Positions 1,952 to 62,206 of a stretch of 64,000 nt of DNA are shown piece by piece; position 1 is the stretch's first letter; each line of letters begins with the position of its first letter. The notes under the pieces are model-generated. The model worked only from the letters and a program-made list of their open reading frames with translations, did not search any database and had not been told where the DNA came from. This DNA is from Candidatus Moraniibacteriota bacterium (GTDB taxonomy: Bacteria > Patescibacteriota > Minisyncoccia > Moranbacterales > UBA1568). The stretch is taken from contig CP064975.1 in assembly GCA_016699425.1 (NCBI GenBank), forward strand, positions 789,698-853,697, given 5' to 3'. The position numbers and the translations under genes are program-made.

Positions 1952-2644
1952 ATGCCTGAACCAACCTGGCCAAAATCTGAAAAACCAGAGGAAGAACCGA
2001 GGGAGAAGCTCTCTGAAACCTTGCTTGGATATGACAATCCAAAAATGGCAGAAATCTTAGCCGAGACCGAGGAGGTCTTCAGTCACAATATAAGTGCTTC
2101 TAATGGAATGACGCATCTTTACGGCGATCTTGCCTACCCCCTTATGCCGCCAGAATTTGTGAGATTGCTCGATACCATAAAAGGAGAGGTACAGGGTGGA
2201 ATATTCGTAGATGCCGGATGCGGGAGTTCACCTGATGTACGAGCCGCCGGAAGACTCGGGATCAATAGAGTGGTAGGCATAGATCTTTTGTCACGGCCGG
2301 CCGATAGTCCTGACCCAAAAATTCAGCCCTATACTGAAGATGAGTTCTGGCAAGGGAAGACGATCCTTAAGATTGGAGATGAGATTACCAGAGGATTGGC
2401 TCGTATGAAATCGAGCATGGTTAATATAGTGCATATGCGAGCCCTGGATATTTTTTCAGGGGATGAAGAGCTTTGCCTCGATGAAATACACAGGGTATTA
2501 AAGGATGGTGGATATTTTATCCTCGACAGTAGCGGGAACTCTATATTCCGTAAGTTCGACCTGAATAAATTCGAGGAAGTTATCAATTATGGCGATGAAA
2601 TGAGAATACTCAAGAAAAAGACAATGGAAGATTTGGTTAAATAA
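1952..2644 (+). CDS. class I SAM-dependent methyltransferase (putative)
   Basis: motif I-like IFVDAGCGSS and post-I VLKDGGYFIL; start codon uncertain. Confidence 0.55.
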   Translation: MPEPTWPKSEKPEEEPREKLSETLLGYDNPKMAEILAETEEVFSHNISASNGMTHLYGDLAYPLMPPEFVRLLDTIKGEVQGGIFVDAGCGSSPDVRAAGRLGINRVVGIDLLSRPADSPDPKIQPYTEDEFWQGKTILKIGDEITRGLARMKSSMVNIVHMRALDIFSGDEELCLDEIHRVLKDGGYFILDSSGNSIFRKFDLNKFEEVINYGDEMRILKKKTMEDLVK

Positions 2645-2670
2645 TATTAATAAATCGAGAAAAATACACT

Positions 2671-3108
2671 ATGGCAACAATCAATCCTTATATTAACTTC
2701 AACGGAAATGCCGAAGAAGCGTTTACGTTTTACAAATCCATTTTCGGTGGAGAATTCGCTGGTATTACTCGTTTCAAAGACATAGCAAGCGCCGAGTTCC
2801 CAGTACCCGAAAATGAGGCAAATAAAATAATGCGCATTGCTCTGCCTATCGGCAAAAACATGTTAATTGCCAATGACGTTCCAGAAAGCATGGGACGGGT
2901 GAGCGAAAACGAGAACAGATCCAAAATAGCAGTCAGCGCAGAAAGCAAAGAAGAGGCCGATAGAATATGGAGCGGCCTTTCGGCAGGTGGGGCAGTCGAG
3001 ATGCCGATGGCAGAAAGCCCTTGGGGCACCTATTTTGCAATGTTTAGAGACAAATATGGCATTGAATGGACCGTGGAATTTGATCCAAAAAATAACGGAA
3101 AAAAATAA
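2671..3108 (+). CDS. VOC/glyoxalase superfamily protein (PhnB-like)
   Basis: N-terminus INPYINFNGNAEEAFTFYKSIFGG typical of PhnB/VOC family. Confidence 0.65.
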   Translation: MATINPYINFNGNAEEAFTFYKSIFGGEFAGITRFKDIASAEFPVPENEANKIMRIALPIGKNMLIANDVPESMGRVSENENRSKIAVSAESKEEADRIWSGLSAGGAVEMPMAESPWGTYFAMFRDKYGIEWTVEFDPKNNGKK

Positions 3109-3867: not shown

Positions 3868-3885
3868 TCGCATACTGATAGTTCG

Positions 3886-3902
3886 AATCCCGCCCTCTCC
3901 GC
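3886..3902 (+). repeat. 17-nt motif AATCCCGCCCTCTCCGC (copy 3) with upstream GTTCGAATCC, tRNA 3'-fragment-like
   Basis: GTTCGAATCC is the canonical tRNA T-loop sequence but flanking T-stem does not pair; lies at left edge of AT-rich island. Confidence 0.4.
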
Positions 3903-3987
3903 ACTGAGTATTTATTATCGGATGACCCGAGTGCCCGAAGATATAGGGCATGTAGATTATAGTCCCCGGAGGGTGTAAAGTTTCAAC

Positions 3988-4536
3988 ATGGATGAATCCA
4001 AAGATCCACTATTAAGTGAGCAAGAGGGTGTCTCAACAGGAGGATATGAATACTCCTTTGTTGCTATTCCCAAGCGCCACATAGTGATCGTCGCTGCCTA
4101 TATCCAACTGATATGGAAAGTGAAGAATTTTGAGAAAACAGTTTCCCCTGAGCAGGTGCTCGAAAATACAAAATCCCTTTTCCGGGAGAACCAAGATAGG
4201 ATTTCCGATAGTCTGTGGAAGGAACACTGCGCCGGATCTTTGAGAGAACTATTAGATTGCCACATGTCAGATCTGCCCTATGCACTTGCATCTCTACCTC
4301 CTCAAACGAACAGTACCGGGCAGCGCGAGCAGATATATGCGGACCTACAGTTATATAAGGAGTTTCTCAATGACCTCGCTCATTTGCAGGGAAACTCTGC
4401 TCTCAAGAATGCACGGTTGATACTGGGAGATACTACCCTGGCAGACATCGACGACAGAGTATTTGATAAAATATGCACACAGTTCATCGACCTGCTCTAT
4501 AGTCTCTTCAGACAACATTGTATGAAAGGCGACTAA
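3988..4536 (+). CDS. hypothetical protein (first gene of AT-rich island operon)
   Basis: 182-aa ORF, 4-nt gap to next ORF, visibly lower G+C than flanks. Confidence 0.5.
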   Translation: MDESKDPLLSEQEGVSTGGYEYSFVAIPKRHIVIVAAYIQLIWKVKNFEKTVSPEQVLENTKSLFRENQDRISDSLWKEHCAGSLRELLDCHMSDLPYALASLPPQTNSTGQREQIYADLQLYKEFLNDLAHLQGNSALKNARLILGDTTLADIDDRVFDKICTQFIDLLYSLFRQHCMKGD

Positions 4537-4540
4537 TACT

Positions 4541-7500
4541 ATGAACCAAATCGATTTACATAAAAAAATTGACGAATTAGTAAAAAAATCACCCCTTCTG
4601 GAAATGAAGGAGGAAGTTTCTGTATTCATGGAAAATGAGGATGCGAAAAGCTATTTTTATTCTACTGCAGATGAAAAATGGCTTCCTTGGCTTTGGAAAA
4701 ATTCATTTTTGGAATCAATAAAGGAAAAAGCTCAAGACTTAGATCGCTACAGTTACCGTACCCCAGAGCTGAACTACTTGGCCCGTATGGCTGAAAAGGA
4801 TCCAAAAACGGTAACTGATATTTTATTGGATACCCCGATTTCTTCTAGTAATTTCAATCCGGAAGTAGTTGATAGATTCTTTTGGATAGCTAGTGAGTTA
4901 CCAGCGGAAGAGCTGACAAGAGTAATTCCAAAAATGCGCGATGAGAAATGGATCTTCCTCATGAACAATTTTAATAGTCACGTTGGCTTCAAATTTGAAA
5001 GCATGTTTAAGACACTAAGCAAGGCAGGCGACGATAAGCATGCCCTTATTCTTAGTGATATACTCTTTGAAGTTCGGAAAAAAGATGCCCCAGAAGAAGA
5101 CAAGGACTTGTGGACCGAGAACCCATTTTACTTTAAAGACCTGGAATATTCTGGGGTATTCGATTTCCTTGAAGAAGTAAATGAAAAATATCTTAGTGAG
5201 TCGCTATCCTTAGTATCGAGTACGATGGGAAAGGTGATTCTGTTTAATGCAGATAAGCGTGAGCCTCGAAGCGCATTTTCTGTTGGTGATGGCCTGGCTT
5301 TTTACGAAATAGACTTTTTCTCGCTGGAAACAGGTCAGAAAAAACATACATCTTATCGTGATGATGTACGAGACCTCGTAGCGACCATGAAAACATTGGC
5401 AATACGCGCCTTTAAAGAGAGCTGTCCTGATAAGGAAAAAACGCAAGCTATTTTTGATGCTTACATAGCTACACTACCAGATAGTCAGGCTATGTGGCGC
5501 TTTCGCCTATTCGTTTATAGCCTCTGTCCAGATATTTTTAGTAAAGATATCAAGAAGGCCCTACTCCGTCTTTCAGAGGTCGAAAATCCGCACGATATTA
5601 CTATGGGAGCAGAATATCAACAACTCCTAAGACGGAGTTTAGATTTGTTTTCTGATCCAGAAAAGCAGAAGTTTAAAGAGGTTATTCTAGGAACTTTTTC
5701 AGACTTAGGTAATGAAAAACTTTCCAAGGGGGATGTATTTGGTATATTTTCTATCATTCAAAATTGGCTGACTGAAGAGGAGAAGGAGAAGGCTGAAAAA
5801 TATATTGGCCAAACACTGAAATCAGATTTCCAGCCAGAGCCCATGATTGGAAAAATGCGAGGTGGTTACGTTCAAGAGAAATCAGTGGTGTCTTCTGAAG
5901 AGTTGGCAGCTATGAGTGTGGTTGATATTTCTAAGAAACTGCAGAAAGATTGGATACCAAAAAATTTAACACGCGAAGAATATACTGAGAGCTCTATTAT
6001 TGAATATAGTGCAGAAGGCTTAGGAAAGGCGATCCAGGATGACATGACTAAGAGATTCCAAGATTACATCCAGAACGCCCCTCTGTTCTTTGAACGGGAA
6101 TTATTGGATGCGCACTATACTTACATCTTTGTACGAGGTGTCTATGAGGTTATTAAAAATACGAAAGGAAGTTTGGATATTGAGTGGGAAGGGCTATTCG
6201 GTCTAATTTCGTCAGTCATTACTTCATTTGAAAAGATTCCTGTAGAAGATGGAAAGAGAAAAAGAGATGGGGGGCACGTTTGGCTGGCTGGCTGGGATGC
6301 GGTGCATAACGCCATGGCAGAGGTAATGGAAGTGCTCCTTAAACAACGTGAGGATAAGACGGATGTAATCGAATTCAAAAAGTACAGAGATAAAATCCTA
6401 GTAATAATTAGATACCTTTTGGCGCATCCAAATCCTGATTTGGAAAGCGAGGTGTGCACGCCTCGATCAAATCAATCTTCAACTGGGAAGGGCCAATACG
6501 ATTGTTCCGATCCTTTCACTCACGCAATTAACTCTGTTCGTGGAAAAGCTTTTGAAGCATTAATAAGCTTTGTCTATAAGGACGGAGAACAATTTCCGAA
6601 AGAAGCTCCTGTAAAAGTTTCTTCTGATGTCGTAGCTATATACGAAGAACTTCTTGGTCGGGAAAATACCCGGGCAATTATGTTTTTGTTTGGGCATTAC
6701 TTGCCCTCTATCTACTTCCGTGACAAAAAATGGACTAGGACTTTATTCGATAAGTTATTCGGATTCGATACGCCTAAGCGAGACCTTGCTCTTGCGGCAT
6801 GGGAAGGCTACTTAACGAATAATCTTTACAACGAGATCTTCCAAGAATTGGAACCTTATTACTCTCGTGCTATTGAATTAAAACGAGAAGATTATACTCC
6901 ACGAGAGTATTTCAAGGATCTTGATGAAGTATTAGCAACGCATGTCGCGCTAGCTTTTATGCATTTTCCCCAGTTCACTTATGAATCAGCGCTTTTTAAA
7001 AAGTTCTGGCAAGAAAAGAATCTTAAAAGACAGACTGAATTTATCTCATTTATCGGTCGTTATTCTATATCTCGAGACCAGGCTAAGGAATGGTTAAAGA
7101 AAAGTAAAATAGATTCTAAGAAGTTGGAAAGTTTTTGGGATTGGATTTTAGAGGCACCAGTAGATCCAAAGGTGTTTGAATCATTTGGATTTTGGATGGA
7201 TGCCGAATGGAATGTTTTTGATCCTGCTTGGCAAGCTGAGCGCACACGAAAGACGCTAGAAAAAACAGGTGGTGCAATAGAGTGGAATCATAATCTTCAA
7301 GAATCGCTCCCTATCTTCGCAAAGGTATCCCCTCAAGACACTCTAACAATACTGAAATTGCATCTAGAATATGTTGCTAAGAAAGCTCCGCAACAGGGTT
7401 GGTTTCATCTTGATGACAAAGTTCAAGAAGTATTTCAGTTCCTCTACGAAAATCCTGAGACTAAAAAAGGAACTTACAACCTCATAGATATTTTATTGCC

Positions 7501-7549
7501 GCTTAGTAATGGAATGTTCTGGAAACTTAAAGATATCGTGAAGGAGTAA
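4541..7549 (+). CDS. large hypothetical protein (1002 aa), no recognisable catalytic motifs
   Basis: 3-kb uninterrupted ORF, AT-rich codon usage, followed by strong intrinsic terminator; no Walker/nuclease motifs found by eye. Confidence 0.7.
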   Translation: MNQIDLHKKIDELVKKSPLLEMKEEVSVFMENEDAKSYFYSTADEKWLPWLWKNSFLESIKEKAQDLDRYSYRTPELNYLARMAEKDPKTVTDILLDTPISSSNFNPEVVDRFFWIASELPAEELTRVIPKMRDEKWIFLMNNFNSHVGFKFESMFKTLSKAGDDKHALILSDILFEVRKKDAPEEDKDLWTENPFYFKDLEYSGVFDFLEEVNEKYLSESLSLVSSTMGKVILFNADKREPRSAFSVGDGLAFYEIDFFSLETGQKKHTSYRDDVRDLVATMKTLAIRAFKESCPDKEKTQAIFDAYIATLPDSQAMWRFRLFVYSLCPDIFSKDIKKALLRLSEVENPHDITMGAEYQQLLRRSLDLFSDPEKQKFKEVILGTFSDLGNEKLSKGDVFGIFSIIQNWLTEEEKEKAEKYIGQTLKSDFQPEPMIGKMRGGYVQEKSVVSSEELAAMSVVDISKKLQKDWIPKNLTREEYTESSIIEYSAEGLGKAIQDDMTKRFQDYIQNAPLFFERELLDAHYTYIFVRGVYEVIKNTKGSLDIEWEGLFGLISSVITSFEKIPVEDGKRKRDGGHVWLAGWDAVHNAMAEVMEVLLKQREDKTDVIEFKKYRDKILVIIRYLLAHPNPDLESEVCTPRSNQSSTGKGQYDCSDPFTHAINSVRGKAFEALISFVYKDGEQFPKEAPVKVSSDVVAIYEELLGRENTRAIMFLFGHYLPSIYFRDKKWTRTLFDKLFGFDTPKRDLALAAWEGYLTNNLYNEIFQELEPYYSRAIELKREDYTPREYFKDLDEVLATHVALAFMHFPQFTYESALFKKFWQEKNLKRQTEFISFIGRYSISRDQAKEWLKKSKIDSKKLESFWDWILEAPVDPKVFESFGFWMDAEWNVFDPAWQAERTRKTLEKTGGAIEWNHNLQESLPIFAKVSPQDTLTILKLHLEYVAKKAPQQGWFHLDDKVQEVFQFLYENPETKKGTYNLIDILLPLSNGMFWKLKDIVKE

Positions 7550-7561
7550 TTTTGGAATAGT

Positions 7562-7587
7562 AAAAACCGCCTGTGAGGGCGGTTTTT
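7562..7587. terminator. bidirectional rho-independent terminator
   Basis: AAAAACCGCC-TGTGAG-GGCGGTTTTT hairpin between convergent ORFs. Confidence 0.6.
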
Positions 7588-7597
7588 ACTAAGTTAC

Positions 7598-7933
7598 TTA
7601 TTGGATATTCACGAGTGTCTTACAGCCCGTATCCATAGTGCCCGTTACTTTCGCTTCTTGTTCTAGGAACTCACAGGAAGCTTTCTTGTCGAAGTTCTGC
7701 CAGTTAATCTTTCCATGGGTTGGCTTATCGATGAAGTAGGTAAGCACAACATCGTTTTTCTTGTTTCCATAACGATCAGTTGTTTCGGCATAGTACCAGA
7801 CAATGACATCGTAGGCCTGGATACTCGGAACATCGTACACCGTTTGGAAGATGGAGGTGGAAAGTTCTCCTGTATCCCTGAGAAGCGAGTTTTTACTGTA
7901 GAAGCTTTTGAGGTCAACTTTAACCGTCACCAT
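7598..7933 (-). CDS. hypothetical protein (111 aa)
   Basis: ORF convergent with 1002-aa gene, shares terminator. Confidence 0.4.
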   Translation of the reverse strand: MVTVKVDLKSFYSKNSLLRDTGELSTSIFQTVYDVPSIQAYDVIVWYYAETTDRYGNKKNDVVLTYFIDKPTHGKINWQNFDKKASCEFLEQEAKVTGTMDTGCKTLVNIQ

Positions 7934-8247
7934 TTTGGTATCTTTGGGACGAGAAAGCCAGCTATACCAAGCTTGGGTTTGAGAAGCCGGTTCTAGAGAA
8001 GGATGTTATCCTCGGATTCGGCCTCCAAGATGCCAAATCAGGCCGAGGAGAGTATGAGAGCCATCATGAACTCCAGAAACTTCTCAAAGATGCTCTAAGC
8101 CCTACAAATTGGCGTCTCATGAGCGATGGAGTCACTTATCGCCTTGGATTCCTCCAAGGGCGCTTAAGGGGCGTAGAAGGTGAGGAAAAGCTCAAAGACC
8201 TCCTAGAATCCGAGCAAAAGAAAAGAGACAAGAAAGTAATTAAATAG
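7924..8247 (+). pseudogene. start-less ORF remnant (about 107 codons, no in-frame ATG/GTG/TTG before codon 66)
   Basis: open frame from stop at 7921 to TAG 8245-8247 translating ...VILGFGLQDAKSGRGEYESHHELQKLLKDALSPTNWRL...; only in-frame start gives 42 aa. Confidence 0.3.
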
Positions 8248-8866: not shown

Positions 8867-9493
8867 TCAATCTTTCCGAGCGAGGACCCAGAGGTGGCTT
8901 TCGGCGCTGCCGAAGTCTTTCTCATTGGCCATCTTCAGTATCGTGAAGCCGCTTTCCGTGATCATTCGCATGTTCGTTTCGGCATCAAAGAAACTCCAGG
9001 CCATCTCCGCACCGCAGAACGATTCTCGTTCTTTGTAGGGAACGTCCTCGGTACCAACCGTGATGAGAAGGTGCCCTTTCGGCTTGAGAAGTGCGCCGAC
9101 CTTTGAGAGCAATTCTTGGTGCCGCTCTCTTGGTACGTGGAAGAGCGAATACAGGGCGATCGCTCCATCGTAGTGCAGAGGAGTGAAAGGATGGTTCAGG
9201 AAGTCGCCCAGGATGTACTCTGCTTCCGGAACGCTCTTCTTGGCTTTCTTGAGATGCTTCGAAGAAAGCTCGATACCTGTCACCGAGAAACCCTGTTGTA
9301 CCAGGTAGAGGTCGTAGGGCACTCCAGGACCGGAACCAAGATCCAGCACGCTTGATTGCGCTGGAAGATTTGATCGCAGCTCTTCGAAGAACCCGGCCTC
9401 AAAGTCATTGAGTGACTGACGATTGCGGTAGACCACTTCGTAGTCACCCTTTTCGTAGCCTCGTTTCACTATATCCTGCATTTTCTTCTTCAC
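8867..9493 (-). CDS. class I SAM-dependent methyltransferase
   Basis: motif I VLDLGSGPG, post-I and motif II spacing typical. Confidence 0.8.
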   Translation of the reverse strand: MKKKMQDIVKRGYEKGDYEVVYRNRQSLNDFEAGFFEELRSNLPAQSSVLDLGSGPGVPYDLYLVQQGFSVTGIELSSKHLKKAKKSVPEAEYILGDFLNHPFTPLHYDGAIALYSLFHVPRERHQELLSKVGALLKPKGHLLITVGTEDVPYKERESFCGAEMAWSFFDAETNMRMITESGFTILKMANEKDFGSAESHLWVLARKD

Positions 9494-10230
9494 GCTAACC
9501 TCCGTAAACAGGTTTGGTTGAGGGGGCAGGTATCAGACTGGGGAGAGGATTCATGACAGAAATGCCTGCCTACAGACCAGAGTGCAGTACCGAGTAAAGC
9601 TGGAAACTGAGGGTAGTTTGCTTGCAAACAGTCATGCAGTTCCTTCAGTCCATCCTTGGTATCGGTGTCGAATAGACCGCTCCTGGAGAGAACCCGCTTG
9701 AGATGCACATCGAGAGCTAATGGGAGGCTACCGATATCCGTAAAATGAATGCCGAAGTCTCTTGCAAGCATGAGGATCGCAAGATTCGCTTTCTTTTCGC
9801 CGATCCCGCTTAACTTGAGGAAGTTCTTTCGAGCGGTAGCGACTGTTCCGTCGCCCTTCCACAAGTTTTCTGATTGGGCATCAAACTCAGATACCAACAC
9901 CGCACAGCTTGCGATGAGATACCTCGCCATGTTGCCGGGATACCTGTGGAGTGCTTTTTTCTCTGCGACAACCCGCTTCAGCTCCTCTATGTTCATTGAG
10001 GCAATCTTTTGGGCATCAAGATGTCCTAGACGTTCCTGCAAGACGAGAGGTGCCTCCCAAGCTAAGCGTGATTGGATGCTCTGATCAAAGATGAGTCCGA
10101 TCACAAAAGCGAGTGGGTTGCTGAATATCAAGGCGTTCGCTTTCTCTGAGTGCGAGTACCCCTTCTCTTCCGAGGACTCCTCCCTCCATATCGACTCCCC
10201 CTGAAGTAGTCCCTCTTTCACTGGGCTCAA
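9490..10230 (-). CDS. HhH-GPD superfamily DNA glycosylase (endonuclease III-like)
   Basis: HhH GIGEKKANLAI, LDVHLKRV matching EndoIII VDTHIFRV, C-terminal Cys cluster. Confidence 0.6.
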   Translation of the reverse strand: MSPVKEGLLQGESIWREESSEEKGYSHSEKANALIFSNPLAFVIGLIFDQSIQSRLAWEAPLVLQERLGHLDAQKIASMNIEELKRVVAEKKALHRYPGNMARYLIASCAVLVSEFDAQSENLWKGDGTVATARKNFLKLSGIGEKKANLAILMLARDFGIHFTDIGSLPLALDVHLKRVLSRSGLFDTDTKDGLKELHDCLQANYPQFPALLGTALWSVGRHFCHESSPQSDTCPLNQTCLRRLA

Positions 10231-30503: not shown

Positions 30504-31124
30504 CTATGCTGCTTTCGATCTAAGAATCTTACTCTCTCCATCTTTCACCAAAACGGCCTCGTCGTCAGCCAAAGGAATGAATTGATATTCTTTATACTCT
30601 CTCTGCATTACCTCAAGCTCATCTCTCTGCTCTTCTACGAAGTGAGGCCAGGGCACAAAGTTGACTAACGACAATCCCTCAAACGAAGTTAGTCCAGGCG
30701 CTCTCCCTGGATCATCGGCATCTTTTGCCAGTTCGACCGTGGGTCCCGCGAGAAGTGCGCCCGCACTCGAACCAATGTATACCGCTCCTTCCTGGACTCT
30801 TTTCTTCACAACCTCATTCAGTCCACTCTTTCTTACCTCCTGAAGAAGATAAAAAGTATTCCCTCCGCTAAAGAAAATTACATCTGCTTTACTTATTTTT
30901 GGCATCCACACTTCCTTAGCAACAGAGGCGACATCTATCACTGCTACTTCTTGAAAAATTTTCCGACAAGCTTCAATATCAGCTTGAAGCCAAGGTTTCG
31001 GACCGTCTTCTACGGTTGCAGCTGTATCAATAAAGATCAGGTTCATTTCGCTCGCAGGTCTTGGAAGTGCAGACACGAGAAGATTCAAAGTTTTCGAGGC
31101 AACAGAGGTGAGATAAAGAAGCAT
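30504..31124 (-). CDS. peptidase S51 (PepE-like) / type-1 glutamine amidotransferase-like protein
   Basis: FFSGGNTFYLL and IGSSAGA blocks. Confidence 0.65.
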   Translation of the reverse strand: MLLYLTSVASKTLNLLVSALPRPASEMNLIFIDTAATVEDGPKPWLQADIEACRKIFQEVAVIDVASVAKEVWMPKISKADVIFFSGGNTFYLLQEVRKSGLNEVVKKRVQEGAVYIGSSAGALLAGPTVELAKDADDPGRAPGLTSFEGLSLVNFVPWPHFVEEQRDELEVMQREYKEYQFIPLADDEAVLVKDGESKILRSKAA

Positions 31125-31244
31125 AAATAGTCGTTAATCTTACGCCAGTATACCAGGTCCGAATGTCATATCCGGAGTACGAAAAAGAGGCTCAGATAAG
31201 CCTCGGATTTCGGTGCTCCCATCGATGGAAGAATCTGGACTCGA

Positions 31245-31580
31245 TTATTTCGGCGCATTTAAATCGTTAAGCATGGCCTTGAGCAGCTGCTGTGTATCGT
31301 CTTGTGTTTTACCTACTTTCAATAATATTTTTCCTAAATAATCCAAACCTCCCCCAACCACCACTTGGTTATAAGATGTTGTATCGCCAAATGGACCAGG
31401 GCCAGCTCCTTTTTTGGCAAGACTAATAATATCCTGGACATCCTCGATTTCTTCCGATGTGAGAGAATTGGCATGTGCCATTATTGACTCCAACACCAAT
31501 TCTATATGGCGATGCCTATTAGGCACAGCCTCTTTCTCTTTAATCTCTTTTTGATGGAACTCTGGAGTCTCTGGACCCAT
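31245..31580 (-). CDS. hypothetical protein
   Basis: 111-aa ORF. Confidence 0.4.
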   Translation of the reverse strand: MGPETPEFHQKEIKEKEAVPNRHRHIELVLESIMAHANSLTSEEIEDVQDIISLAKKGAGPGPFGDTTSYNQVVVGGGLDYLGKILLKVGKTQDDTQQLLKAMLNDLNAPK

Positions 31581-60567: not shown

Positions 60568-61440
60568 TTAGCTTTTCTGAATCAAGCTAACTAGTGCTTT
60601 TACGGAGGACAGCTCTGGCTCCTCAATTTTTTTTGCGTCAATAATCCGCGGAGGTTTAGTATCGTCACTAAAAGTAACATAATAGTAATTGCCCCTATCT
60701 ATAATTCCATGACCAATTTCTTGAGAAGTTGCTGCTTTATATTTCCCTTCAATTGTTTTTTCTTTAATTACCTCAAAACGAACTTCATAATCTGAATCTC
60801 TCCTTTTCCCAAGCGGTGCATGGGAACCAATCCTGATAAGATGCCGCTGACCAACCTCCGTGAAAGGAATGAACTGCGATCCCCTCCCAAGGAGAAAGTT
60901 CCCCTGCTTGTAAGGATTAAGATTAAAGTTCACTAATTTTGAAACGCTTTTGGCCGCCTTTTTTGCCGACCTATCGACAATCCTTGTCTCCTCAGTGCTT
61001 TTTCCCTCCACCCAATGAAGATTAAATCCAAATCGAATTTTCTTTTTTTCTCTTAAGTAATCCTTCCATAATCCCTGATGCTTAACATCATAACCATCCC
61101 GAGTCTTCCATTTATCTTTGCCGAATGGTTTAGCCCACCTATATACGCTACTATTTGCGCTATCAACTACATACCTAGAATCACTAAGAACAGTAATCGA
61201 AGTAATTCCAAGTTGAGAGATTTCCTTGGTATTCCTATTTATCCACTTCAGCGCATTAACCAATGCCTGTAATTCCATCGCCCCACTTGTTCCGCCAGAA
61301 TAAGGAAACTTAATCTCCCTATTTGGTAGATTAAGAAACTTGGGATACACGACAAGCATCGCACATCCAACCATTTCACCTGGATTGGTGATTGCTGATC
61401 CGTCTATATAAATCACCAGTTCATCTTCGCTATCCAACAT
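60568..61440 (-). CDS. RNase H (type 1) domain protein with 140-aa uncharacterised C-terminal domain
   Basis: DEDD residues in IYIDGS / MELQAL / LSDSRY / IVDRSA; start at ATG 61440; AT-rich. Confidence 0.7.
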   Translation of the reverse strand: MLDSEDELVIYIDGSAITNPGEMVGCAMLVVYPKFLNLPNREIKFPYSGGTSGAMELQALVNALKWINRNTKEISQLGITSITVLSDSRYVVDSANSSVYRWAKPFGKDKWKTRDGYDVKHQGLWKDYLREKKKIRFGFNLHWVEGKSTEETRIVDRSAKKAAKSVSKLVNFNLNPYKQGNFLLGRGSQFIPFTEVGQRHLIRIGSHAPLGKRRDSDYEVRFEVIKEKTIEGKYKAATSQEIGHGIIDRGNYYYVTFSDDTKPPRIIDAKKIEEPELSSVKALVSLIQKS

Positions 61441-61463
61441 GTCGAGCCAATATAGTTTGGGAT

Positions 61464-61545
61464 GCACCAAGACGGGAATCGAACCCGTACGATCCAAAGA
61501 TCATCTTCTTGTAGAATTTCAAAAAAATTAGAAACTCTAGTAGGA
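61464..61545 (-). other. tRNA-like T-arm/acceptor fragment (GTACGGGTTCGATTCCCGTCTTGGTGC) plus long AT-rich hairpin; not a complete cloverleaf by eye
   Basis: perfect T-arm ACGGG-TTCGATT-CCCGT on minus strand; no matching 5' acceptor strand found. Confidence 0.3.
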
Positions 61546-61630
61546 AGATGTGTCTACCATTCCACCACTCGAGCAAAGCTTTTACCCATAATACTATCTC
61601 CAGCTAAATCAATATTAAGCAGAAAAAGAG

Positions 61631-62206
61631 TCAGGACAGTATCTTTTCGTTACGCTTTTGAAGTAAATATCCCGCTATACCTAAAATAATTGGCATGGCT
61701 AGTCCCATAATTACAATTGTATCCACTCGTTCATTTATTCGAACATACGCCCCTTCTAAATCCTCAACACTTTCATTCAAAACATCCTGTTTATCCTTCA
61801 ATGTTCTTGAGGTTATTGCCTTATCAGTATCATAAAGTATTGTCTCTTCGATTGAGTTCTGCCTTGCCTCCAAACCAGTTACTCGCTGATTTACCAAGGC
61901 AAGTGATGTGCCCTGGTTATTTTTCAGCACCTCCCGCAATGATAACAGCTCTTTCTCAAGAGCCAGGTTTTTCTTATTTAGATTTTCAATTTTTTCCAAG
62001 ATCTCATCCTTATTCCTTATCAAAGAGAATGGGAAACTATCAATTCTTGTCTGATAGAGTAGGTAGCCAATAGAAAGGACGGCGTAGACTATAGTGAGAC
62101 TGAGAACGAGACTCTGTTTTCTCTTCCTTCTTTCTTCTAAAGACTTCTGAAGAGCCAAGTACTCAGAGAAAGACTCAGATAGCTTTTTTTGTGAGGAATA
62201 GGCCAT
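61631..62206 (-). CDS. hypothetical coiled-coil membrane protein
   Basis: 2 TM helices flanking coiled-coil; AT-rich. Confidence 0.5.
   Translation of the reverse strand: MAYSSQKKLSESFSEYLALQKSLEERRKRKQSLVLSLTIVYAVLSIGYLLYQTRIDSFPFSLIRNKDEILEKIENLNKKNLALEKELLSLREVLKNNQGTSLALVNQRVTGLEARQNSIEETILYDTDKAITSRTLKDKQDVLNESVEDLEGAYVRINERVDTIVIMGLAMPIILGIAGYLLQKRNEKILS

Follow-up and report, generated by a model that had tools for sequence, protein, structure and literature searches.

What do two adjacent genes of a Candidatus Moraniibacteriota bacterium (Patescibacteria, or candidate phyla radiation (CPR)) do, given that the database lists both of their products as hypothetical proteins? The genes lie in an A+T-rich island of a 64,000-nucleotide (nt) stretch of contig CP064975.1 (positions 789,698 to 853,697, forward strand), which we call the window and whose numbering we use throughout. 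An earlier reading of this DNA from its letters only, made without database searches (the sequence-only reading), had described the pair as an operon of wholly unknown function and as a candidate defence cassette. We consider it probable that the two genes encode an anti-phage sensor–effector system with a sensor of the Dsr1/Avs7 class, and that the island which carries them was acquired horizontally and has been rearranged. The candidacy for defence is strengthened by Dsr1 homology of the sensor, by gene fusions in relatives and by restriction–modification and recombinase genes in the neighbourhood. The sensor is of a kind already known; what is new here is that the effector domain is uncharacterized, that it has a gene of its own, coupled in translation to that of the sensor, and that the clade is largely centred on Patescibacteria. 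The two genes are as follows.

3988–4536, plus strand: effector-slot gene, 182 amino acids (QQR78227.1); its domain corresponds to the N terminus of fused relatives.
4541–7549, plus strand: sensor gene, 1002 amino acids (QQR78228.1), with homology to the Dsr1 sensor.

The stop codon of the first gene (TAA, 4534–4536) is followed by a 4-nt spacer ('tact') and then by the ATG of the second at 4541. Both open reading frames, and a convergent one at 7598–7933, lie exactly where the sequence-only reading had placed them.

The 1002-residue protein carries a Dsr1-type sensor

The structural model of QQR78228.1 is a confident all-alpha solenoid of HEAT/TPR-like character (predicted local distance difference test (pLDDT) 89.7), and the protein has neither a Walker A motif nor a match to any nucleoside triphosphatase (NTPase) family in Pfam, as anticipated by the earlier description of an all-helical repeat protein without Walker motif. 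Its placement comes from the defence-system profiles in PADLOC. The profile for Dsr1 (defence-associated sirtuin 1, reportedly described by Gao et al. in 2020) matched residues 444–842 with E 2.6e-21, corresponding to profile positions 730–1077 of 1227. Six of nine further family members matched the same profile (E 1e-14 to 1e-23), the widest match covering positions 556–1197 of 1227. The region matched is the part of Dsr1 that lies behind its SIR2 domain, and no SIR2 domain was found in either protein with Pfam or NCBIfam. The other defence families in PADLOC gave no match for the sensor, scans of all three island proteins against Pfam, NCBIfam and PHROGs returned nothing usable, and sequence searches of the PDB with single sequences and with the profiles A2, A3 and A4 returned nothing. 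When the model itself was compared with PDB structures, the matches were generic solenoids only, with no Dsr1 or Avs7 chain among them.

QQR78228.1 has 102 full-length homologues (29–57% identity), which fall into two length classes of about 1000 and about 1150–1210 residues; for the sensor family as a whole, the count is at least 102 protein clusters and 299 loci in metagenomes, of which many belong to Patescibacteria. Named hosts of the relatives comprise Patescibacteria lineages, Elusimicrobiales and Aureabacteria, and some relatives are on multi-Mb contigs (large-genome bacteria). The family is enriched in Patescibacteria, with a patchy distribution that crosses phyla. With the sensor placed in a superfamily that has been described (PMC13581612), the functions of the two genes are no longer wholly obscure, and the earlier statement to that effect does not stand.

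A helical domain with two invariant residues occupies the effector position

The longer class of sensors has an N-terminal extension of 147–193 residues, which is present in 21 of the 102 homologues. QQR78227.1 aligns end to end with the N terminus of one such fused protein (P0097, 1200 residues; BLASTP E 5e-27) and also with that of another (P0034), and alignments show that the standalone homologues and the N-terminal extensions of fused relatives are one and the same domain. Both alignments of this domain (30 and 65 sequences) have R86 and H132 without exception, and we refer to the domain as the arginine/histidine (R/H) domain. The 30-sequence set adds W77 as a further invariant position, and A82, S84 and E87 come close to invariance. 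The AlphaFold2 (AF2) model of QQR78227.1 consists of seven helices (pLDDT 80.9; predicted template modelling score 0.77). An exhaustive profile search recovered 287 representatives of the domain; because nearly all of them are either proteins of about 170–190 residues or the N terminus of proteins of about 1110–1310 residues, and thus standalone or N-terminal in sensor-sized proteins, the R/H domain is essentially dedicated to this sensor.

Among matches of this domain, PF18165 ('Predicted pPIWI-associating nuclease') is the sole Pfam family to recur, in 10 of 65 members at E ≤ 0.01 (best E 7.3e-6), and the best score in relatives, 26.0 bits against a cut-off of 26.3, spans profile positions 3–43 of 133 only. 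The piece shared with PF18165 may not be the catalytic part. Two family members also gave a weak match to the PADLOC profile Aga_Nuclease. Membership in the HEPN ribonucleases (RNases) was considered and not adopted. The Rx4-6H motif is not conserved in the family; a fold search with the 182-residue model returned generic bundles only. On the pattern of conserved residues, the most likely chemistry of the effector would be that of a nuclease or RNase using R86, E87 and H132, to which we would give about an even chance. More tentatively, the R/H domain (W77, R86, E87 and H132) could represent an immune effector of a new type, acting either as a metal-independent nuclease with no relation to HEPN or as a killer that is not an enzyme; it would be used almost solely with a Patescibacteria-centred clade of capsid sensors tuned to CPR phages and would be deliverable as a separate subunit; we regard this fuller proposal as possible and hold it with considerable reserve.

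Fusion, fission and exchange of partners

We compared gene organization across 90 related loci, made up of the window, look-ups, 80 metagenome loci and 3 viral contigs. The R/H domain is fused to the sensor in a single gene at 30 of these loci and is encoded by a split upstream gene at 39. At a further 12, the upstream gene encodes a single-pass membrane protein instead of the R/H domain, and 5 loci have a small partner of some other kind, which at one of them is weakly CHAT-like; at 3, the sensor gene is cut by the end of the contig. Intergenic gaps in the split pairs are mostly between −4 and +10 nt. The split point varies by lineage, and many standalone proteins end in a helix, 'RQxDxHxEID', that forms the start of the sensor in the window ('MNQIDLHKKIDEL').

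Partners do not diverge in step. At locus L008, the effector is 54% and the sensor 41% identical to those of the window; P0002 has a sensor that is 57% identical, and BLAST finds no match for its effector domain; and the 52%-identical sensor at L001 is accompanied by a transmembrane (TM) partner. In these comparisons, effector and sensor identities are uncoupled, and the exchange of partners is the modular effector-swapping pattern of immune sensors.

Some rarer partners were noted in passing. The gene upstream of the sensor at L117 (4051–5232) encodes a 393-residue protein with a weak match to CHAT (caspase-like protease; E 0.0056, under the cut-off) and may be a further effector type for this sensor. 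A family of about 220 residues, beginning 'ME(L/F)P.WLK.ENL', occupies the effector slot at L075 (5322–5990), L078 (5309–5968) and L118 (997–1686); it has no TM segment in a hydropathy scan and no family match. In the window, two genes to the right of the island, a 246-residue protein (9490–10230) has a 32%-identical homologue (L099, 4720–5361) directly upstream of a split sensor–effector pair, which may be a coincidence or a recurrent neighbour.

Genomic neighbourhoods of related loci

Relatives of the pair are found among restriction–modification and mobile-element genes. The large genes directly upstream of fused relatives are restriction–modification components in eight cases out of eight, and they differ in type (Eco57I/MmeI type IIG, type I HsdR, ResIII helicase and N6_N4 methylase), which indicates co-location in defence islands. 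The idea that these upstream genes form one conserved multi-gene system was rejected, because the restriction–modification types differ. Type III restriction–modification genes are also present among the neighbours of related loci. The fused gene at L004 comes directly after a PLD-SNF2 helicase and an MmeI/Eco57I-type enzyme; the pair at L008 lies between an MmeI-type restriction–modification gene, a DEAD helicase, a T5orf172 gene and a serine recombinase; that at L006 adjoins a tyrosine integrase, an HTH_17 gene and a TrwB gene; and that at L001 adjoins a serine recombinase, a ParB-methylase and an SLFN_AlbA_2 gene.

A phmmer census of 82 non-duplicate loci found a restriction–modification-like gene at 35, a recombinase or integrase at 17 and either of these at 43, counts that should be taken as minimum values, since many of the contigs are short. 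Viral-classed contigs carry three of the relatives. In the annotated neighbourhoods of relatives we saw no pAgo gene, and in those examined no third conserved gene.

The pair lies on a probably acquired and rearranging island

The sequence-only reading had taken the island for a horizontal acquisition that is far more A+T-rich than everything around it. Composition is indeed not uniform: the GC content of the island (3904–7990) is 0.407, against 0.527 outside it within the window, and it is the lowest of all 4-kb stretches (mean 0.522, s.d. 0.035). The GC content at third codon positions (GC3) of the 1002-residue gene, 0.363, is likewise the minimum among 74 long open reading frames (mean 0.589, s.d. 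0.091). Because the left neighbours at 1952–3108 (GC 0.44) and the NUDIX gene (0.47) are also under the window average, however, the contrast is real but milder than had been stated. The left neighbours encode a methyltransferase (230 residues) and a glyoxalase/3-dmu-9_3-mt-like protein (145 residues), and therefore the atypical region may begin well to the left of 3886.

The remaining features of the island and its borders are these.

3881–3903, plus strand: 23-nt tRNA-Ser 3'-end fragment (T-loop to discriminator), an exact match, 13 nt past the DUF218 stop codon.
7558–7591, strandless: perfect hairpin of 14–15 bp (inverted repeat, 100% complementary) with T and A runs on either side.
7598–7933, minus strand: convergent orphan gene, 111 amino acids, without family match; island cargo.
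7951–8247, plus strand: start-less 3' remnant of a 356-residue Zn-ribbon gene, matching the end of L002:10670–11740; the right-hand rearrangement junction.

The right-hand border bears evidence of rearrangement. The start-less reading frame that had been called a gene remnant is a genuine truncated gene, because 7951–8227 is 87.7% identical in DNA, and 86.5% in protein over 89 residues, to the 3' end of an intact 356-residue Zn-ribbon gene in L001/L002; the breakpoint falls at about 7951 rather than at 7924, and only the last approximately 100 codons are kept in the window. L001/L002 represent a related organism (its HxlR protein is 67% identical), in which the TM partner and the 52%-identical sensor are followed by SLFN_AlbA_2 and the intact Zn-ribbon gene, which in L002 lies two genes 3' of the sensor. 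In the window, by contrast, the sensor is followed by the terminator-like hairpin, the 111-residue orphan gene and the Zn-ribbon remnant. DNA identity between the window and L001/L002 is far higher for the remnant (87.7%) than for HxlR (68.6%) or the sensor (about 67%), a difference that suggests an accessory segment common to both genomes and subject to rearrangement, with its breakpoint close to 7951. The deviant composition, the truncated junction gene and a relative with a different version of the cassette beside the intact gene together uphold the view of a horizontally acquired accessory island.

Between the sensor gene and this junction, the hairpin at 7558–7591 looks like a bidirectional terminator that would close both the two-gene operon and the convergent gene. 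The 111-residue product of the latter has no homologue in any of the approximately 90 related loci, and we therefore place it outside the system; a weak PADLOC match to PDC-M65B (E 0.008) was rejected as a sign of a system component on the same ground.

At the left-hand border, the motif at 3881–3903 (GTTCGAATCCCGCCCTCTCCGCA), described earlier as resembling a tRNA 3' end, is exactly the 3' end of tRNA-Ser; it has a single occurrence in the window, against 0 matches expected by chance. A 22-mer of the motif occurs 47 times in viral contigs; of the 20 scanned, 9 have it as a tRNA-Ser gene's 3' end, and in others it stands without a tRNA, alone like an attachment (att) fragment. The fragment is probably a relic att-type scar; alternatively, it is the leftover of a tRNA whose 5' part was deleted. 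In the usual integration into a tRNA 3' end, however, a plus-strand fragment is the distal border of an element situated on its left, and the orientation is thus wrong for the canonical distal att site of an element on its right. Neither ARAGORN nor Rfam found an intact tRNA in the window (Rfam gave no match at all), a search for att-type direct repeats flanking the island found none, and no integrase open reading frame lies in the 1–12 kb part of the window. Of the features of a tRNA-integrated island, a deviant composition and a disrupted junction gene are present here, and the set of an intact tRNA, a 3'-end repeat opposite it and an integrase is absent.

Further traces of this kind lie to the left. 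Between the ABC transporter and methyltransferase genes, the interval 1735–1885 holds two more degenerate plus-strand copies of the tRNA-Ser 3' end, at 1743–1765 (GACCGAATCCCTCCCTCTCCGCC) and 1858–1872 (CCCTCCCTCTCCGCA), together with a GGAGAGG at 1815–1821 that is able to pair with either copy. Folded as RNA, the interval has a minimum free energy of −67.3 kcal/mol (z = −4.8 against shuffles), and no Rfam family or tRNA was called in it. It could be a decayed tRNA-Ser or a series of att scars, in which case the entire 1.7–8 kb region would be an old integration hotspot. Close to both tRNA-like motifs, at 1848–1857 and 3964–3973, is the motif CCCCGGAGGG, inside 'tata(g)(t)ccccggaggg(g)(t)gtaaa', which may be part of a small repeated element. 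Elsewhere in the window, a second low-GC pocket at 30504–31580 (GC 0.42–0.45, GC3 0.38–0.40) encodes a Peptidase_S51 protein (206 residues) and a 111-residue protein without family match, and a third at 60568–62206 (GC 0.39–0.41), which may be another acquired segment, encodes a 309-residue RNase H-domain protein and a 191-residue protein without convincing family match.

A proposed mechanism and its alternatives

The Dsr1 sensor is homologous to that of Avs7 (bioRxiv Jan 2026, PMC12803255; Nature Jul 2026, PMC13581612), and the phage major capsid protein triggers both EcDsr1 and SeAvs7, the two members for which such activation and anti-phage protection are known (PMC12803255, PMC13581612). 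By homology with these sensors, we propose that the 1002-residue alpha-solenoid would recognize a conserved structural protein of phages, and probably their major capsid protein. The 182-residue protein would take the place of the N-terminal effector domain of single-chain relatives: made by coupled translation, it would dock on the N terminus of the sensor, as the fusions suggest. Binding of the phage protein would then release or assemble the effector, and the infected cell would be stopped (abortive infection). The weakest step is the last, in which R86, E87 and H132 may confer metal-independent nuclease or RNase-type chemistry; relatives with a single-pass membrane protein in the slot would inflict membrane damage instead. 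Our confidence in the capsid-protein trigger and in the nuclease chemistry is lower than in the sensor–effector assignment as such.

Several observations weigh against this proposal. Homology to Dsr1 is at the level of hidden Markov models (HMMs) only, and 3 of the 10 family members tested miss E 1e-3. QQR78227.1 itself has no match in Pfam or PADLOC; the similarity of its relatives to PF18165 is confined to the SLRE helix around the conserved arginine (profile positions 3–43); and an Rx4-6H motif of the HEPN kind, although present in the window protein (R86...H92), occurs in just 12 of 65 family members. Nor was a close relative found in which absence of the island could be assessed: a scan of genome contigs with the DUF218 protein gave only a 28%-identical Saccharibacteria match, and exact look-ups of DUF218, NUDIX and the sensor gave nothing, or a mere 952-nt contig.

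The same narrow PF18165 similarity would suit an arrangement in which the sensor serves defence as proposed and the R/H domain is not an enzyme, acting rather as an adaptor or regulator that recruits or sequesters a host factor, or controls oligomerization of the sensor, with toxicity coming from elsewhere. In pPIWI-RE partners, a helical arginine-containing domain lies N-terminal to the true restriction endonuclease domain, and the fold search returned generic bundles only. SeAvs7, moreover, stably binds host EF-Tu as a cofactor (PMC12803255 / PMC13581612), so host-factor binding does occur in the Dsr1/Avs7 sensor class. We nonetheless think this arrangement unlikely. The R/H domain sits where enzymatic effectors of the Dsr1/Avs7 type sit and can be exchanged for TM proteins, effectors that suffice by themselves; the strict conservation of R86 and H132, and the near-strict conservation of E87, among very divergent members fits catalysis better than docking; and there is no third conserved gene.

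Two explanations dispense with specific phage sensing. The tight two-gene layout with the small gene first, the frequent serine recombinases, integrases and other mobile-element genes nearby and the three relatives on viral-classed contigs would all fit an addiction (toxin–antitoxin-like) or exclusion module mainly serving a mobile element, in which the small partner would be toxic and the large protein would hold it in check. A 1000-residue solenoid would be an atypical antitoxin, however, and a third of the relatives are single fused chains, which are incompatible with the differential stability that toxin–antitoxin logic requires; given also that the sensor is specifically homologous to a capsid-sensing domain, we judge such a module very improbable. 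Very improbable too, in our estimation, is a cellular role outside defence, for example as a scaffold or chaperone pair of CPR episymbionts, with the low GC reflecting a gene-specific bias. The fold resembles the eukaryotic scaffolds importins, CAND1 and PP2A-A, the family is enriched in Patescibacteria and neither protein has a demonstrated activity, all of which such a role would accommodate. It would sit poorly with the patchy cross-phylum distribution (Elusimicrobiales, Aureabacteria and large-genome bacteria), with neighbours that are variable, defence-rich and linked to mobile elements, with the swapping of partners, with the related genome that has a 52%-identical sensor beside another partner at a rearranged locus and with the match of the sensor to the Dsr1 HMM.

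Little has been described of how Patescibacteria, with their tiny genomes, defend themselves against phages; if our proposal is true, the family extends the capsid-type sensor of Dsr1/Avs7 to this group. The natural split version would be handy for studying communication between sensor and effector, mutagenesis should be easy to aim at an effector domain in which no more than two polar residues are invariant, and two families of 'hypothetical proteins' gain a testable function.

Comparison with known systems

On the effector side, the weak matches of R/H domain family members to PF18165 (pP_pnuc_1) and PADLOC Aga_Nuclease fall on the helix with the conserved SLRE arginine. The PF18165 matches lie under or at the gathering cut-off, cover about one-third of the profile and are lacking for the window protein. 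HEPN RNases (RnlA/LsoA, HepT and Csx1/Csm6) have a conserved Rx4-6H motif, whereas here R86 and H132 are the invariant residues.

On the sensor side, about 9,100 proteins carry the Dsr1/Avs7 sensor, with many N-terminal effectors that include NADases, nucleases, kinases, an HEPN-like RNase, TM domains and unknown domains (PMC12803255, PMC13581612). A Streptomyces 'HEPN-like RNase' protein is among the non-STAND members, and proteins with this sensor have undergone extensive horizontal transfer (PMC12803255 / PMC13581612). The sensor of the superfamily has two lobes and is sharply bent. Like this superfamily, the present family combines one conserved sensor with alternative effectors (the R/H domain, fused or split, single-TM proteins and others), and by analogy its expected trigger would be the phage major capsid protein. 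Avs7 has a STAND NTPase between effector and sensor; here there is neither a Walker A motif nor an NTPase, and the system is therefore not an Avs7. The text consulted on this superfamily (PMC12803255 / PMC13581612) describes single-chain proteins and makes no mention of split two-gene forms or CPR hosts.

The closest counterpart is Dsr1, which has in common with the present system a homologous alpha-solenoid/TPR-type sensor region, the lack of a STAND NTPase, an N-terminal effector (in the fused relatives) and a location in defence islands. Dsr1 has a SIR2 NADase, whereas the slot here holds the helical R/H domain, and because there is no SIR2 domain the system is not a Dsr1. Dsr1 is also a single gene, in contrast to the two genes of the window, although 30 of the 90 related loci have single fused genes, and the hosts of the present family are mostly Patescibacteria.

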